Below, piece by piece: positions 1 to 7,071 of a DNA stretch of 7,071 bases. The stretch covers positions 1 through 7,071 of IMG/VR virus record IMGVR_UViG_2778261418_000022; one strand, written 5' to 3'. The position numbers and the translations under genes were made by a program. The stretch comes from a virus. Lineage: Duplodnaviria > Heunggongvirae > Uroviricota > Caudoviricetes. Position 1 is the stretch's first letter. The number at the start of each line of letters is the position of its first letter. The notes below the pieces were generated by a model. It made no database searches. It was not told where the DNA came from and worked only from the letters and a program-made list of their open reading frames with translations.

Positions 1-2856
1 CGGATGCGCAGGATGACGCCGGACAGCACCACAGACCAGCTGCAGAACAAAACGCTCTGGTCGTCATACACCGAAATCATCGATGTGAAACAGTGCTACC
101 CGAACACGGCACTGGTCGGCGTACAGGTGGATTCGGAGCAGTTCGGCAGCCAGCAGGTGAGCCGTAATTATCATCTTCGCGGGCGCATTCTGCAGGTGCC
201 GTCGAACTATAACCCGCAGACGCGGCAATACAGCGGTATCTGGGACGGAACGTTTAAGCCAGCATACAGCAACAACATGGCCTGGTGTCTGTGGGATATG
301 CTGACCCACCCGCGCTACGGCATGGGGAAACGTCTTGGTGCGGCGGATGTGGATAAATGGGCGCTGTATGTCATCGGCCAGTACTGCGACCAGTCGGTGC
401 CGGACGGCTTTGGCGGCACGGAGCCGCGCATTACCTGTAATGCGTACCTGACCACACAGCGCAAGGCGTGGGATGTGCTCAGTGATTTCTGCTCGGCGAT
501 GCGCTGTATGCCGGTATGGAACGGGCAGACGCTGACGTTCGTGCAGGACCGACCCTCGGATAAGGTGTGGACCTATAACCGCAGTAATGTGGTGATGCCG
601 GATGATGGCGCGCCGTTCCGCTACAGCTTCAGCGCCCTGAAGGACCGCCATAATGCCGTTGAGGTGAACTGGATTGACCCGAATAACGGCTGGGAGACGG
701 CGACAGAGCTTGTGGAGGACACGCAGGCCATTGCCCGTTACGGTCGTAACGTCACGAAGATGGATGCCTTTGGCTGTACCAGCCGGGGGCAGGCACACCG
801 CGCCGGGCTGTGGCTGATTAAAACGGAGCTGCTGGAAACGCAGACCGTGGACTTCAGCGTGGGCGCAGAAGGGCTTCGCCATGTACCGGGCGATGTCATT
901 GAAATCTGTGATGATGACTATGCGGGTATCAGCACCGGCGGGCGCGTGCTGGCGGTGAACAGCCAGACGCGGACACTGACGCTCGACCGTGAAATCACGC
1001 TGCCATCCTCCGGCACCACGCTGATAAGCCTGGTTGACGGAAGTGGCAATCCGGTGAGCGTGGAGGTCCAGTCCGTCACCGACGGCGTGAAGGTGAAAGT
1101 GAGCCGTGTTCCTGACGGCGTTGCCGGATACAGCGTGTGGGGACTGAAGCTGCCGACGCTGCGCCAGCGCCTGTTCCGCTGCGTGAGTATCCGTGAGAAC
1201 GACGACGGCACGTATGCCATCACCGCCGTGCAGCATATACCGGAAAAAGAAGCCATCGTGGATAACGGGGCGCACTTTGACGGCGACCAGAGCGGCACGG
1301 TGAATGGTGTCACGCCGCCAGCGGTGCAGCACCTGACTGCCGAAGTCACCGCAGACAGCGGGGAGTATCAGGTACTGGCCCGCTGGGACACGCCGAAGGT
1401 GGTGAAGGGCGTGAGCTTCCTGCTCCGTCTGACCGTAACAGCGGATGACGGCAGTGAGCGGCTGGTCAGCACGGCCCGGACGACGGAAACCACATACCGC
1501 TTCAGGCAGCTGGCGCTGGGGAACTACAGACTGACAGTCAGGGCGGTAAATGCCTGGGGGCAGCAGGGTGATCCGGCGTCGGTATCATTCCGGATTGCCG
1601 CACCGGCAGCACCGTCGCGGATTGAGCTGACGCCGGGCTATTTTCAGATCACCGCCACGCCGCATCTTGCGGTTTACGATCCGACGGTACAGTTTGAGTT
1701 CTGGTTCTCGGAAAAGCGGATTGCGGATATCAGGCAGGTTGAAACCACAGCCCGCTATCTTGGTACGGGGCTGTACTGGATAGCTGCCAGTATCAATATC
1801 AAACCGGGCCATGATTATTACTTTTATATCCGCAGTGTGAACACCGTTGGCAAATCGGCATTCGTAGAGGCTGTTGGTCGGGCGAGCGATGATGCGGAAG
1901 GCTATCTGGATTTTTTCAAAGGTCAGATAACCGAATCCCATCTCGGCAAGGAGCTGCTGGAAAAAGTCGAGCTGACGGAAGATAACGCCAGCAAACTGGA
2001 GGAGTTTTCGAAAGAGTGGAAGGACGCCAACGATAAATGGAATGCCATGTGGGGCGTCAAAATTGAGCAGACCGAAGACGGTAAGCATTATGTCGCGGGG
2101 CTTGGCCTCAGCATGGAGGATACAGAGGAAGGCAAACTGAGCCAGTTTCTGGTTGCCGCCAATCGTATCGCGTTTATTGACCCGGCAAACGGGAATGAAA
2201 CGCCGATGTTTGTGGCGCAGGGCAATCAGATATTCATGAACGAAGTATTCCTGAAGTATCTGACGGCTCCTACCATTACCAGCGGCGGTAATCCTCCGGC
2301 ATTTTCCCTGACACCGGACGGAAAGCTGACCGCTAAAAATGCAGATATCAGTGGCAGTGTGAATGCGAACGCCGGGACGCTCAACAACGTCACGATTAAT
2401 GAGAGCTGTACTATTAAGGGGATGCTTGATGCTAACCAGGTGCGTGGTGATTTTGTAAAAACGACAGGGCATCGATTTCCGCACCCCGGAGAATACCCAC
2501 AGGGTTCACTTACCGTTCATATTAAGGACGATCATGCCTTTGACAGGCAGATTATAATTCAACCAATCATGTACGGTGCACCACCATATTTTAGTAAAAA
2601 TGATGGCGCTAATATCTACGATACCTGCAGATTAATTGTGCGCAAAAATGGCAATGTAATCTATGACAAATCCACTAGTGGTTCGAAAAGGACAACAGTC
2701 GTGTACAGCAATATCATTGATATGCCAGTGGGGGACGGAGATGTAATATTAACATTTGAAGTTCAGTCGAGCGGCAGTGGAAATCCCAGAACATGGATCA
2801 GTGATTTAATGGTCTCGGTAACGAAAAAAGCCGCATCCGGTATCAGTATCAGTTGA
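1..2856 (+). CDS. J: Tail tip host-specificity protein, lambda J family (central fibre); 5'-truncated by the window edge, about 950 codons present, stop at 2854-2856
   Basis: Continuous open frame from base 1 to the TGA at 2854-2856. Size and position directly upstream of a lom-like gene match lambda J. The region around nt 1310-1860 translates to two tandem beta-rich repeats with a fibronectin-III-like pattern (e.g. [27 protein letters not shown]). The conserved part is about 60% GC. The overlapping minus-strand ORFs are read as spurious. Confidence 0.88.
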
Positions 2857-2876
2857 AATTTTTATAACCCCAATAC

Positions 2877-2904
2877 GGGCGCCAGAAATGGCGCCTTTTT
2901 TATT
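2877..2904 (+). terminator. Rho-independent terminator candidate downstream of J
   Basis: GC stem GGCGCC (2878-2883), loop AGAAAT, stem GGCGCC (2890-2895), followed directly by TTTTTTATT (2896-2904). Confidence 0.6.
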
Positions 2905-2925
2905 GCAGAAAAGCGAGAGGTAATT

Positions 2926-3525
2926 ATGCGTAAAGTTTGTGCAGCCATTTTGTCCGCAGCCATCTGTCTGGCCGTATCCGGTGCGTCTGCATGGGCGTCT
3001 GAACATCAGTCCACACTGAGCGCAGGGTATCTTCATGCCCGTACGAACGCACCCGGCAGCGATAATCTGAACGGGATTAACGTGAAATACCGTTATGAGT
3101 TTACGGACACACTGGGGCTGGTGACGTCATTCAGCTATGCAGGAGACAAGAATCGCCAGCTTACCCGTTACAGCGATACCCGCTGGCATGAAGATTCAGT
3201 GCGTAACCGCTGGTTCAGCGTGATGGCGGGGCCCTCTGTGTGCGTGAATGAATGGTTCAGCGCGTATGCGATGGCGGGTATGGCTTACAGCCGTGTTTCG
3301 ACTTTCTCCGGAGATTATCTCCGCGTAACTGACAACAAGGGGAAAAAGCACGATGTGCTGACCGGAAGTGATGACAGTCGCCACAGCAACACGTCTCTGG
3401 CGTGGGGGGCAGGCGTGCAGTTTAACCCGACCGAATCCGTGGCCATTGATATTGCTTATGAAGGCTCCGGCAGTGGTGACTGGCGCACTGACGGTTTCAT
3501 CGTGGGTGTCGGTTATAAATTCTGA
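2926..3525 (+). CDS. lom: Outer-membrane beta-barrel protein of the Ail/Lom/OmpX family (lambda Lom-like moron), 199 aa
   Basis: ATG at 2926 preceded by GAGAGG (2915-2920). N-terminus [24 protein letters not shown] is a typical Sec signal peptide with AxA cleavage motif. Mature protein has alternating aromatic/hydrophobic beta-strand patterns and a C-terminal ...GVGYKF ending in Phe, as in outer-membrane barrels. Near-identical by recall to lambda Lom (about 206 aa) and in the same place between J and stf. Confidence 0.92.
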
Positions 3526-3551
3526 TTAGCCAGGTAACACAGTGTTATGAC

Positions 3552-3579
3552 AGCCCGCCGGTTCAGGCGGGCTTTTTTG
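3552..3579 (+). terminator. Rho-independent terminator candidate downstream of lom
   Basis: Perfect 8-bp stem AGCCCGCC (3552-3559) / GGCGGGCT (3566-3573) with loop GGTTCA, followed by TTTTTT (3574-3579). Confidence 0.7.
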
Positions 3580-3589
3580 TGGGGTGAAT

Positions 3590-5893
3590 ATGGCAGTAAA
3601 GATTTCAGGTGTACTGAAAGACGGCACAGGAAAACCGGTACAGAACTGCACAATCCAGCTGAAAGCAAAACGTAACAGCACCACGGTGGTGGTGAACACG
3701 CTGGCCTCAGAAAATCCGGATGAAGCCGGGCGTTACAGTATGGACGTTGAGTACGGTCAGTACAGCGTTATTTTGTTGGTGGAAGGGTTCCCGCCGTCAC
3801 ATGCCGGGACCATCACCGTGTATGAAGATTCTCAACCCGGTACGCTGAATGATTTTCTCGGTGCCATGACGGAGGATGATGCCCGTCCGGAGGCACTGCG
3901 CCGTTTTGAACTGATGGTGGAAGAGGTGGCGCGTAACGCGTCCGTAGTGGCACAGAACACGGCAGCCGCGAAGAAGTCAGCCAGCGATGCCAGCACATCA
4001 GCCCGTGAGGCGGCAACCCATGCAACTGATGCTGCAGACTCAGCACGCGCAGCCAGAACGTCAGCCGGACAGGCCGCGACGTCGGCTCAGGAGGCTTTTT
4101 CCAGCGCAGGAACGGCATCAGCAAAGGCCACTGAAGCATCAAAAAGTGCTGCCGCAGCAGAGTCCTCAAAAAGCGCGGCGGCCACCAGTGCCGGTGCCGC
4201 GAAAACGTCTGAAACGAATGCGGCAGCGTCACAACAATCAGCAGCCACTTCTGCATCCACCGCGACCACGAAAGCGTCAGAAGCAGCCACTTCAGCACGG
4301 AATGCGGCGGCTTCAAAAGAGGCGGCAAAATCATCAGAAACGAGTGCAGCCTTGAGCGCCAGTAGTGCAGCCTCCTCGGCAACGGCGGCAGGAAATTCCG
4401 CGAAGGCGGCAAAAACGTCCGAGACGAACGCAAGGTCTTCTGAAACAGCGGCAGCACAGAACGCCTCAGCTGCAGCAGATTCAGAAACTGCTGCAGAGAC
4501 GTCCGCCAACGCTGCGGCTACGAAGGCGACAGAGGCGGCAGACAGTGCGGCGGAGGCTGAGCGGAGCAAAAGTACAGCAGAGTCCGCGGCAACCCGAGCC
4601 GAGACAGCGGCAAAGCGGGCAGAGGATATCGCATCCGCCGTGGGGCTTGAGGATGCGAGTACAACGAAAAAGGGAATAGTACAGCTCAGCAGTGCTGCCA
4701 ACAGCACATCTGAAGCATTTGCTGCAACCCCAAAAGCCGTCAAAATCGTCATGGACGAGACGAAAACCAAAGCGCCGCTGGACAGCCCGGCATTCACCGG
4801 TACGCCAACCACACCAACCCCACCGGATGATGCGGTCGGACTGGAGATGGCGAACGCGGCGTTTGTCCGCAAACTGCTCGCTGCGCTGGTTGGCTCGTCC
4901 CCGGAAGCCCTGGACACGCTGAACGAACTGGCAGCGGCGCTGGGTAATGACCCAAACTTTGCGACGACGGTCACTAACGCACTGGCAGGTAAACAGCCGC
5001 TTAGCGATATTTTAACAGCGATTAGCAAATTAACAGTACGGGCAGATAACCTTCTGTATTTTAATACCGGAGGGAATATCGCGCTGTCTCCGTTGTCAGC
5101 AAAAGCCCGCTCACTGCTGGCGCAGTTCACATCCGAAGATATGCGGCAGGTGCTTGAAATCTCAGATAGCGTGGCATTACAAAGTAATATTTATGATCGC
5201 ACTGAAGGGAGAGGAGCATTACCGGGGACATTGGGTTTTGGAGCACTGACTTCGACGATTAAATATTTTAGCGCAAGTGATGGTCAGTCTGAGCTTGTAA
5301 CCTGGTGTATGCAGACGCCGCCAGGGCGCTACCTTGTGGAGCAGAGAACACATCCGGATTTTAATCCCATCATTCCGGATATTGGTTTTACCGGAGTGCT
5401 CGAAATTAAAATTTCTGACAGGGTATACAGTCAGGCAGAACATCAGGGCAAAAGAAAATTACTGACATTTTATGAACAGTATGGGGATGTCTATCGAACA
5501 GTTCTTGATGCAGATCCCGTAAGCCCGTCCCTGCGCCCCTGGGACTCAGGCTACATAAACAGAAGCGGGATTGCCAGTCTGCTTGGGAGCGATAGCCAGG
5601 CCCCGGAAGTCGGTAATATTATTCTTGCAGCCTATTACGGTACATCAGACAGCGATATGACCAGAACTCTGCAGAGAGGAAAGATTTATCCAGGTTCAAG
5701 GCTGGGGCATGTGGAATTCTCGGGAGGGGTGGCGACAGGCGCTGGCGTAAAAGGAATCACACCAACTTGTTATGTCAGTGGACTGTCATATTCGCTTTCC
5801 CTGCCCGGGGCATACAGAGCGTTATCTGGTTCGGGTGGTGTACTGATGGCTGACAACAACACTATTGTGGGGTTATTTGTGCGGGTACGGTAG
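3590..5893 (+). CDS. stf: Side tail fibre protein, lambda Stf-like, with conserved N-terminal and Ala-rich shaft region and a divergent AT-richer C-terminal distal domain
   Basis: ATG at 3590 gives MAVKISGVLKDGTGKPVQNCTIQLKA..., matching by recall the lambda Stf N-terminus. The track's GTG at 3584 is an in-frame upstream alternative. GGGGTG lies just upstream as a Shine-Dalgarno-like element. Single uninterrupted frame to TAG at 5891-5893, so it is not split as in laboratory lambda (orf401/orf314). Long Ala/Ser/Thr-rich shaft, then a compositionally distinct C-terminal third. Confidence 0.88.
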   Translation: MAVKISGVLKDGTGKPVQNCTIQLKAKRNSTTVVVNTLASENPDEAGRYSMDVEYGQYSVILLVEGFPPSHAGTITVYEDSQPGTLNDFLGAMTEDDARPEALRRFELMVEEVARNASVVAQNTAAAKKSASDASTSAREAATHATDAADSARAARTSAGQAATSAQEAFSSAGTASAKATEASKSAAAAESSKSAAATSAGAAKTSETNAAASQQSAATSASTATTKASEAATSARNAAASKEAAKSSETSAALSASSAASSATAAGNSAKAAKTSETNARSSETAAAQNASAAADSETAAETSANAAATKATEAADSAAEAERSKSTAESAATRAETAAKRAEDIASAVGLEDASTTKKGIVQLSSAANSTSEAFAATPKAVKIVMDETKTKAPLDSPAFTGTPTTPTPPDDAVGLEMANAAFVRKLLAALVGSSPEALDTLNELAAALGNDPNFATTVTNALAGKQPLSDILTAISKLTVRADNLLYFNTGGNIALSPLSAKARSLLAQFTSEDMRQVLEISDSVALQSNIYDRTEGRGALPGTLGFGALTSTIKYFSASDGQSELVTWCMQTPPGRYLVEQRTHPDFNPIIPDIGFTGVLEIKISDRVYSQAEHQGKRKLLTFYEQYGDVYRTVLDADPVSPSLRPWDSGYINRSGIASLLGSDSQAPEVGNIILAAYYGTSDSDMTRTLQRGKIYPGSRLGHVEFSGGVATGAGVKGITPTCYVSGLSYSLSLPGAYRALSGSGGVLMADNNTIVGLFVRVR
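3950..4640 (+). repeat. Low-complexity Ala/Ser/Thr-rich repetitive shaft-coding region inside stf, with imperfect internal direct repeats
   Basis: Translation is dominated by short degenerate units of the form SAxxAxTSA / AAKTSETNA. Near-identical DNA copies occur, e.g. gccgcgaaaacgtctgaaacgaatgc (4197-4222) versus gcggcaaaaacgtccgagacgaacgc (about 4404-4429). GCN/GCR-rich sequence gives long spurious ORFs in other frames. Confidence 0.6.
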
Positions 5894-5896
5894 CTG

Positions 5897-6478
5897 ATGA
5901 TGAAAATAAAAGATATTAAAAAGATATTCAGACTGGAAAATGGTGCTGTGGATTGTGAGGTGTTGTTTTTCGGTATGGAAGAGTATTTGCCTTACACTGC
6001 ATCGCCGGAAGACATGGATGAGACAGGGCAGCGCATCTGGAAAGAGTTACAGAGCGGCAAATGGGGCGAAATTTCCCCGTTTACCGTCACCCCTGAACTT
6101 ATCGCTGCGGCAAAGGATGCCAAAAAGTGGGAAATTGAGGCGTGGCGAACAAAACAGGAGGCGCAGCCGTTCACGTTCGAATGGAGCGGTCGTATCTGGA
6201 ACGCCGGCCCCGACTCACTGGCCCGTCTTTATCCGGTGGTAATGGCCGCAAAATCTGATACGGCACGAACCGCCCTTGCGTGGGGTGACGCTGATAATCA
6301 ACAGGTGAAACTTTCAATGCCAGAACTGGAAGAGCTGGCAGCAGCAATGGCACAGGCGCAGGTCGATCGCAACGACGAGATTTATCGTCGTCAGCGGGAG
6401 ATGAAGCAAGAGCTGAATAACCTGAATGATTTACGCTCAATCAGAGCGATGGCGATTAGCGGCAATCACGCTCGATAA
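5897..6478 (+). CDS. Putative tail fibre assembly chaperone in the tfa position, 193 aa; family not confirmed
   Basis: ATG at 5897 lies 3 nt after the stf stop (TAG CTG ATG ATG), indicating translational coupling. Its length is close to lambda Tfa (194 aa) and it occupies the position directly after stf. The sequence does not match lambda Tfa from memory, so the call rests on synteny and size; the coding call itself is stronger than the product call. Confidence 0.6.
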   Translation: MMKIKDIKKIFRLENGAVDCEVLFFGMEEYLPYTASPEDMDETGQRIWKELQSGKWGEISPFTVTPELIAAAKDAKKWEIEAWRTKQEAQPFTFEWSGRIWNAGPDSLARLYPVVMAAKSDTARTALAWGDADNQQVKLSMPELEELAAAMAQAQVDRNDEIYRRQREMKQELNNLNDLRSIRAMAISGNHAR

Positions 6479-6481
6479 ATT

Positions 6482-6507
6482 AACCCCGGTGATCATCCGG
6501 GGTTTTG
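6482..6507. terminator. Candidate bidirectional terminator between convergent genes
   Basis: Stem AACCCCGG (6482-6489) / CCGGGGTT (6497-6504) with loop TGATCAT, followed by a T-run on the + strand (6503-6506). It sits in the 35-bp gap between the tfa-position gene stop (6478) and the minus-strand gene stop (6514). Confidence 0.5.
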
Positions 6508-6513
6508 CATTCA

Positions 6514-7071
6514 TTAAAACCGCATCAACCTTTCCACCAATTGTTCTTTACGGGCAACGATCCACCCATGTTGCTCCAGATAAAATTTAAACCGTTCCAG
6601 AGTGCATACCATCGCATCGGCGGGGACTTTTTCTGTGAACTCGACCTGACCGTGTTTATCGAAGTGGATCAGTAATGCGCATCCATTATTTGGGGCGGGG
6701 GAGTTTTGTGCTGCAGGAGGACGTTTGTGGAGTTCTTCTTCCATTGCGTTAATTTTTTCAATGTAAGCTTCTTTTAGTCTGGCTGCTTTTTTGCCAGTAA
6801 ATCCCATTACGAGGAACATGAAGCCGTCTTTTGTGATCAGGTAACATCGTGATTCACGTTCTGCGCCGTTGCCAATTTCGACAGTCTGAACATCGGCCGA
6901 AAAGTTGGCTGATGTAAATTCGGGAGAGCAGTCGAGTGTGTCAATCTTAGCTAAAACGTGTTTATGTTGTTTATCGAAGTAGTCGGCAACAGCTTGAGAG
7001 GTGGTAACCAGGCGACCATCTTTGAAAAAGGCTTTTGGTGACTCGTTAGAAAAAGTTATAGCTGTATTCAT
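6514..7071 (-). CDS. Rha-family phage regulatory protein (antirepressor-like N-terminal domain) with an uncharacterised C-terminal region, 185 aa
   Basis: Complete ORF on the minus strand; the ATG is the reverse complement of 7069-7071 at the window edge, stop at 6514-6516. The N-terminal half (...GRLVTTSQAVADYFDKQHKHVLAKI...ITKDGFMFLVMGFTGKKAARLKEAYIEKINAMEEEL) fits the recalled Phage_pRha domain pattern. The C-terminal ~70 aa have no family I recognise. The promoter and any RBS lie beyond the window. Confidence 0.6.
   Translation of the reverse strand: MNTAITFSNESPKAFFKDGRLVTTSQAVADYFDKQHKHVLAKIDTLDCSPEFTSANFSADVQTVEIGNGAERESRCYLITKDGFMFLVMGFTGKKAARLKEAYIEKINAMEEELHKRPPAAQNSPAPNNGCALLIHFDKHGQVEFTEKVPADAMVCTLERFKFYLEQHGWIVARKEQLVERLMRF

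Follow-up and report, generated by a model that had tools for sequence, protein, structure and literature searches.

The window analysed here is a stretch of 7,071 nucleotides (nt) from a virus of the Caudoviricetes (IMG/VR record IMGVR_UViG_2778261418_000022, positions 1 to 7,071). It is the tail-fibre end of a lambda-type prophage, with the gene order J-lom-stf as in lambda, and it opens within J, the gene for the tail-tip and host-specificity protein gpJ. The tip of J decides which outer-membrane protein a lambda-like phage uses, hence which strains are infected or lysogenised. A sequence-only reading of the window had proposed, from an abrupt fall in guanine plus cytosine (GC) content near the 3' end of J, that the receptor-binding domain was replaced horizontally from a lower-GC donor. 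In this study we find, with high confidence, that the best explanation for nt 2404-2800 is an allelic cassette for the C-terminal specificity region of lambda-type J, moved among Escherichia coli lambdoid prophages by homologous recombination.

Breakpoints of the cassette

The J gene of the window was compared with that of seven relatives, lambda, mEp460, 2H10, 1W, PhiR55_1, PhiR47_1 and CEA224S. As far as nt 2400, nearly every 100-nt bin has a nucleotide identity of 85-100%, the exception being PhiR55_1, with only 57-68% in 1-100 and 1901-2200. Over 2401-2800 identity to the seven relatives is 44-69% per bin, and from about nt 2800 it recovers in all of them except lambda and 1W. It reaches 77-81% to the non-lambda relatives in bin 2801-2900, against 47% to lambda, and in bin 2901-3000 it is 95-98% to mEp460 and 2H10 and 75% to PhiR55_1, PhiR47_1 and CEA224S.

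In amino acids, the fragment matches lambda J at 90-100% in each 50-residue bin as far as residue 980, and at 38-52% over residues 981-1132. Counted per decade, identity is 10/10 up to residue 969, followed by 7, 6, 5 and 2 of 10. Residue 980 of lambda is equivalent to nt 2401 of the window, and residue 964, where published gpJ chimeras are fused (PMC11338833), to nt 2353. The cassette therefore starts close to lambda residues 960-985, once the conserved sequence has ended, where the left boundary of the published J specificity module is placed. The sequence-only reading had expected identity to collapse at about residue 835 of the fragment; the collapse is present, but some 30 residues earlier, at fragment residues ~800-806 (nt ~2400-2416), in agreement with the GC3 step described below, the published specificity region and the chimera fusion point.

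The first ~25 codons of the variable region (nt 2404-2470, including a 19-residue stretch) are much closer to mEp460-type alleles and to those of the low-GC phages described below than to other lambdoid alleles, and identity to mEp460 in nt 2401-2500 is 69%, versus 54-61% for other alleles. This suggests a further breakpoint within the cassette; a further breakpoint has also been proposed at alignment position 49 (PMC6646904).

Mosaic distribution of the cassette

The cassette occurs in 23 of 5,426 complete E. coli genomes (about 0.4%), at 97.6-99.4% identity, and in six IMG/VR prophage contigs. Eleven carriers, namely five complete E. coli genomes and the six IMG/VR prophages, were compared with the window along its length. 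Over the cassette and its right flank (nt 2404-2925) they are mostly 98.6-100% identical to it, Z1323CEC0013 being at 96.3-99.3%. The J body (nt 101-1900) is 94-96% identical and lom 90-96%, and nt 1901-2300 come in three versions, at 63%, 87% and 96%. In Z1323CEC0013, mEp460-like mismatches extend up to nt 2427 and start again from nt 2832, the cassette standing between mEp460-like flanks, and the minimal block common to all carriers is ~2430-2820.

Conversely, the J body of the window is found with different tips in lambda, mEp460, 2H10 and others. Similarity of the C-terminus is thus discordant with that of the rest of J, one cassette being present on at least three backbones and one backbone with several cassettes. 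A young, near-invariant block on older and diverse flanks, conserved on both sides, is a signature of exchange by homologous recombination. Breakpoints and mosaic distribution are direct observations, and from them we infer the recombination itself, which would likely proceed through homology arms, the left one at ~nt 2280-2400 and the right one made up of the last, conserved part of J together with the terminator and lom.

Three side observations concern the carriers. The segment at nt 1901-2300, which encodes the alpha-helical shaft and upper fibre prism (Pfam Phage_Tail_Tip), is a second mosaic segment in J, and its divergent version is also present in PhiR55_1. Records from chicken, duck, turkey or 'poultry' account for 14 of the 24 E. 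coli records with the cassette, and 8 are from one South Korean series. In strain SM107 the chromosome carries the cassette, and so does a 111-kb record with a plasmid label (NZ_CP130669.1).

Family and fold of the encoded domain

The C-terminal domain matches Pfam Ig_GpJ_C (PF12421, 'C-terminal receptor binding domain') with 107.6 bits against a cut-off of 26.2, over residues 831-951 and profile positions 17-135 of 135. It occupies the extreme C-terminus, after the hub, two FNIII/Ig domains and the tail-tip fibre. A phmmer search against PDB sequences gave E = 1e-68 to 'A8 gpJ 713' (9WCA/9WCB) and 1e-56 to lambda gpJ (8XCJ/8XCK). An AlphaFold2 model of the domain, computed as a monomer (predicted local distance difference test, pLDDT, 81), has eight strands, and its top four Foldseek matches in the PDB are all gpJ (9wcb, 9wca, 8xck and 8xcj; E = 2e-16 to 8e-15, template-modelling (TM) score 0.69-0.70). 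Indeed, in the structure prediction that the sequence-only reading had called for, the model superimposes on the solved gpJ receptor-binding domains as an Ig-like beta-sandwich. What the cassette encodes is an ordinary gpJ receptor-binding domain and no foreign fold. Taken with the identity collapse and the presence of the same cassette on different J backbones, the Ig_GpJ_C match and the fold match bear out the proposed horizontal replacement of the receptor-binding domain.

The motifs FDRQ, NG, DMPxGxG, LxF, SD, KK and GI are invariant across alleles. Relative to lambda, the window has indels at lambda residues 1011-1014, ~1045-1050, ~1072-1077 and ~1103-1105, all four at or within a few residues of the published lineage hot spots 1012, 1048-1049, 1077-1078 and 1107. 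These hot spots define J lineages, and 1012 and 1107 are critical for the laboratory gain of OmpF use (PMC6646904). Since the framework is kept and all four loop/indel hot spots are unlike those of the LamB and OmpC types, the carrier phage would be expected to use a different receptor or receptor variant. A change of host range through the cassette would be in line with published work on the module (PMC6646904, PMC11338833).

In lambda, four bottom loops of the Ig-like domain enter LamB, the three domains spread, a twist runs up the fibre and the tail opens (PMC11101478). On the pattern of that work and of PDB 9WCB, the window domain would trimerise, bind an outer-membrane protein and trigger tail opening. 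On the model of lambda and A8 gpJ, the central tail fibre would end in three copies of the domain, and their bottom loops would insert into the outer-membrane protein. Binding would then spread the three domains, twist the fibre prism and open the tail tube for DNA ejection.

GC profile along J

In 120-nt windows GC is 0.375-0.392 over nt 2521-2760 versus 0.54-0.66 over nt 1-1680, which agrees with the hand counts of the sequence-only reading, and the drop is, as stated there, inside a single open reading frame (ORF). The same reading described one sharp fall from 60% to 35-40%. Two steps are found instead, so that this contrast mixes a family-wide step with an allele-specific one; sliding-window GC and codon composition give neither a smooth profile, which speaks for a real drop, nor a sharp single step. 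By maximum likelihood, J divides at nt 1638 and nt 2505 into three segments, with GC of 0.612, 0.509 and 0.407 and GC at third codon positions (GC3) of 0.755, 0.578 and 0.402.

The step at ~1638 is the larger and statistically much the stronger (log-likelihood ratio 25). It lies at the boundary of the two FNIII/Ig domains, at about lambda residue 726, and recurs at this position in lambda, mEp460, 2H10, 1W, PhiR55_1, PhiR47_1 and the 97 J loci surveyed; being family-wide, it is no evidence of a swap in the J gene of the window. With GC going from 0.61 to 0.51 and GC3 from 0.75 to 0.58, it looks like an old compositional seam within J.

The step at ~2505 amounts to ten points. Its post-hoc Fisher p is 0.0015, and when the codons of nt 1651-2856 were shuffled 5,000 times, a 336-nt window as low as the observed one turned up in 197 cases. 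GC3 starts to drop ~100 nt before total GC, from 0.60 in 1651-2403 to 0.39 in 2404-2511, and this onset, at ~nt 2404, coincides exactly with the break of homology to other J genes. Since the shift sits at synonymous sites, amino-acid composition is ruled out as its cause. The variable region of the window allele has a GC of 0.43 and a GC3 of 0.41, with GC3 at 0.48-0.62 in most other lambdoid alleles (0.48 in mEp460, 0.50-0.54 in the common types, 0.62 in lambda and 0.38 in the allele L048), and the rest of J is compositionally constant across the lambdoid alleles surveyed. An AT-rich C-terminus shared by lambda J and its homologues would have spoken against a swap: the composition at ~2505 is specific to the allele, but the ~1638 step is common to all and L048 is lower still.

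Rarity of the allele

Among 11 allele clusters defined at 90% identity, the variable region of the window is 44-51% identical to all other lambdoid alleles. When 50,697 phage records were searched at the DNA level, only the last ~118 nt of the cassette had a match, at ~80% identity. In a library of 1.84 billion protein cluster representatives there were 98 matches, none above 57% identity; this library cannot resolve tip alleles, because full-length J proteins cluster by their conserved body. A word-indexed search of 5.8 billion proteins returned mainly J fragments and one relative, with 57% identity, on a ~40% GC contig. No match to the allele was present in the supplement of PMC11338833. In the GTDB species representatives, patterns from the cassette itself found nothing, and those that it has in common with P0002 retrieved mEp460-type alleles alone, from two Escherichia genomes and a probably contaminated Collinsella metagenome-assembled genome (MAG); no lower-GC bacterial host with a close relative appeared in these scans. 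The Collinsella sequence is a 1.35-kb contig (L100; JAGZNZ010000056.1, 1-1350) with an mEp460-type E. coli J fragment, and is almost certainly a binning contaminant.

What is new here is the allele itself, rare, confined to prophages and with no characterised relative, together with a compositional and phylogenetic hint to the tips of uncultured low-GC phages. Since no characterised relative exceeds ~60% identity and the allele is absent from the sequenced phages searched, it is a candidate for a new receptor specificity.

Relatives in low-GC phages and the question of the donor

A metagenome scan returned ten more related tips, at 50-59% identity, which end J-like proteins of 1218-1259 residues in human-gut contigs of up to 194 kb. 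The tips of the ~42% GC phages (L103-L112 and L013) are 55-61% identical to the window cassette in amino acids. They have a GC of 0.42-0.45 and a GC3 of 0.33-0.41, with a GC of 0.43 in the J body and 0.42 in the locus. The J-like gene is followed by a gene for an M15 endolysin and by one for a uvsW helicase, the latter 80-89% identical at the nucleotide level to Krischvirus (T4-like), as for example in L105 (698-4474, 6125-6478 and 6510-8009), and because these genomes carry T4-type uvsW and M15 endolysin the phages are not lambdoid. Among cultured phages, Escherichia phage DCP80 (141 kb) comes closest in the J-like body, with an amino-acid identity of 38.6%. In L013, a Logan contig, the J-like gene shifts frame at ~nt 390 (360-400), the upstream part being in frame 1 and the tip in frame 2; since the ORF is intact in the related metagenome contigs, the shift probably stems from faulty sequencing or assembly.

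The Kimura distance from the window tip is 0.59-0.62 to the low-GC tips, 0.75 to mEp460 and 0.83-1.01 to the others, and in a neighbour-joining (NJ) tree the window, the mEp460-type alleles and the low-GC phage tips form a clade with 91% bootstrap. For the lower-GC donor proposed in the sequence-only reading the support is only circumstantial, the nearest relatives by distance being ~42% GC phage tips of native composition, but their identity is 55-61% and the branching order within the clade has a bootstrap of only 54%. The composition is observed directly, and transfer from AT-richer genomes would account for it: a lower-GC origin of the cassette has circumstantial support, and its low GC would most likely come from a long history in AT-richer phage genomes. 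Such a history would explain most economically why a gene with a GC3 of 0.75 contains a segment at 0.41.

Several findings weigh against our interpretation. The total-GC step at 2505 is statistically modest. The allele is in none of the 50,697 phage records, where the best tblastn match has 48.8% amino-acid identity, and one carrier has a frameshifted J. The NJ tree puts the window with the mEp460-type alleles (54% bootstrap), outside the low-GC clade, and the low-GC relatives are only 55-61% identical in amino acids and about 65-70% in nucleotides, with no long shared stretches. Finally, L048, which is lambdoid, is even AT-richer than the window, and every allele is AT-richer than the J body, so that low GC may be a property of the whole pool of modules.

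The alternative that follows from this last point is the live one, and it concerns the donor sub-claim only: the cassette was exchanged, its AT-richness is no sign of a lower-GC donor, lambdoid tips as a pool generally have less GC than the J body, and the ~42% GC phages may be recipients. We consider it a serious contender, although somewhat short of even chances. It agrees with the 11 allele clusters, whose variable regions have a GC of 0.43-0.55 versus 0.59-0.60 in the body and form a GC3 continuum of 0.38-0.62 with L048 below the window, as well as with the 54% bootstrap for the placement of the window relative to the low-GC clade and with the lack of a close nucleotide match to any low-GC phage. 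However, the GC3 of 0.41 is far under that of the flanking J (0.60-0.75) and equals that of the low-GC phages' tips, the composition of those tips matches that of their whole gene and locus, as expected of native sequence, and they are nearest to the window by distance, every lambdoid allele being at 0.75 or more.

On balance, that the cassette crossed between large uncultured ~42% GC gut phages with T4-type replication genes and E. coli temperate lambdoid prophages, and that it may direct adsorption to a receptor unassigned to any lambdoid J (neither LamB, OmpC nor OmpF), is put forward as a tentative and rather doubtful proposal. If it were true, the passage of host-range modules between virulent and temperate phages could be followed through the composition of the J tip, and engineered lambda particles would gain a new targeting option in this allele. 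The compositional link to the ~42% GC phage tips hints at host-range modules moving between temperate and non-lambdoid phages.

Other explanations of the divergent C-terminus

It is very improbable that no exchange took place and that strong diversifying selection, together with AT-biased mutation, made the C-terminus diverge in place in an otherwise conserved J. The region is indeed under diversifying selection and evolves fast in the laboratory (PMC6646904). Yet the breakpoints are abrupt, with flanks 95-100% identical on both sides, synonymous sites inside the cassette are saturated (~50% nucleotide identity) and there are multiple indels. Moreover, a near-identical cassette sits on backbones that differ by 4-6% and have three versions of nt 1901-2300, and the backbone of the window is found with other tips; this mosaic distribution excludes divergence in place.

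Still less credit can be given to the view that the GC drop is a fluctuation of chance or amino-acid composition with no biological boundary. It could draw on the ten-point size of the 2505 step, on the 4% of codon shuffles that match it and on the richness of the domain in I, K, N, Y and D. A fall of GC3 from 0.60 to 0.39 precisely at the homology breakpoint of ~nt 2404 is, however, something that amino-acid composition cannot produce, and the boundary agrees with independent identity profiles and with the Pfam domain edge.

Diversity-generating retroelements diversify the C-termini of some phage tail proteins, but it is hardly conceivable that the variable C-terminus of J is the variable-repeat target of such an element, as neither template repeat nor hypervariability is found: nt 2400-2856 have no direct repeat partner anywhere in the window (the sole match, of 21 nt at 2586 and 5263, is by chance), the cassette is 98.6-100% identical among 11 carriers, the opposite of hypervariability, and no reverse transcriptase is among the window ORFs scanned.

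Features of the window

The J fragment corresponds to the C-terminal 951 residues of the protein, lambda gpJ residues 180-1132, the N-terminus being cut by the edge of the window. Its Pfam domains are, in order, Phage-tail_3, Ig_J, Ig_J_second, Phage_Tail_Tip and Ig_GpJ_C, with the stop codon directly after. Coordinates are collected in Table 1, where the names of the J domains in 1638-2403 are taken partly from PMC11101478.

Table 1 Features of the 7,071-nt window.
Feature	Coordinates	Strand	Basis
J, 3' 84% of the lambda-type tail-tip/host-specificity gene	1-2856	+	Frame 1 open from nt 1, stop 2854-2856
Part of J with intermediate GC (0.51), comprising the second FNIII/Ig domain, the alpha-helical shaft and the beta-prism fibre; outside the swap	1638-2403	+	Change point and Pfam
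Conserved left flank: 35-residue stretch, last identity among natural gpJ variants	2281-2403	+	Bin 2301-2400 identity 86-100% to all relatives; invariant alignment columns
Exchanged specificity cassette (best explanation): last fibre-prism strands and Ig-like receptor-binding domain	2404-2800	+	Identity profiles, mismatch maps
Receptor-binding domain in the strict sense (Ig_GpJ_C; residues 831-951 of the fragment), matching the stretch of low total GC (0.41 from nt 2506)	2491-2853	+	PF12421
Conserved right flank: last ~18 J codons, intergenic spacer, rho-independent terminator (stem 2877-2896 and T run)	2801-2925	+	Identity profiles, terminator scan
lom (Ail/Lom outer-membrane protein), context marker for the J-lom-stf-tfa arrangement	2926-3525	+	PF06316, 394.6 bits
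Side tail fibre gene (stf)	3584-5893		Pfam scan
DUF4376 gene	5897-6478		Pfam scan
Rha-family regulator	6514-7071	opposite	Pfam scan

A terminator is annotated in mEp460 at the same place as the site predicted in the window. Rfam gave no RNA families in the window, and promoter-like sites are no more frequent in it than in shuffles. The gene after stf, with its DUF4376 domain, does not belong to one of the usual families of tail-fibre assembly proteins. Within stf, matches from phages stop at about nt 4430-4820, and the distal part of the gene looks like another swapped module; the length of stf differs strongly among the carriers of the J cassette, from 1.25 to 3.36 kb.

Comparison with known systems

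The specificity region of J, the C-terminal ~170 residues (lambda residues 960-1132), was described in 2018 by Maddamsetti et al. as an independently circulating module, from an alignment of 1,207 sequences (PMC6646904). The window shows each of its features, namely a discordant history, breakpoints near 960-985 and lineage indels. It differs from that account in the question of composition, the term 'GC content' being absent from the text of the paper, which ties no allele to low-GC non-lambdoid tips. A modular, recombining J specificity region being already established, the conceptual gain of the present work is small: a known phenomenon has been recognised correctly.

The ~42% GC phages have the Ig_GpJ_C tip nearest to the window cassette, with shared motifs that include one of 14 residues, one of 22 residues and TWISDL, and with similar GC and GC3, whereas outside the tip their gene has no relationship to lambda J in its DNA.

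Lambda gpJ, which uses LamB (8XCJ/8XCK), belongs to the same family as the window domain and has the same C-terminal position, upstream domain order, framework motifs and gene context (J-terminator-lom-stf), as well as the same Ig-like fold (Foldseek E = 1e-15, TM-score 0.70). In contrast, the window is only 44-46% identical to it in amino acids over the variable region, has four indels, including the loss of residues around 1012, and a GC3 of 0.41 versus 0.62. Its receptor is presumably other than LamB.

A8 gpJ, of the 2H10 type, uses OmpC (9WCA/9WCB) and is the best structural and sequence match among the solved structures (Foldseek E = 2e-16). It is also a natural E. coli prophage allele of the same module, and the first loop is short in both. 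The two are 49-50% identical over the variable region, and the window allele has three residues inserted (…SGSKRTT…) and is shorter in the third and fourth loop regions. At these levels of identity to lambda and to A8/2H10 the receptor of the window allele is not assignable by homology, and the allele is its own cluster at 90% identity, distinct from those of LamB or OmpC type.

Swapping the gpJ C-terminus at residue 964 turns lambda from LamB to OmpC, natural variants retarget engineered lambda particles (PMC11338833), and two such tips have been solved with their receptors (PDB 8XCJ and 9WCB). The receptor-binding region of 2H10 (L003, 2854-3456) is identical to the 'A8 gpJ' of 9WCA/9WCB, solved with OmpC; therefore OmpC use is predictable for 2H10 and for the prophages of that allele cluster, which makes up 43 of the 97 loci.

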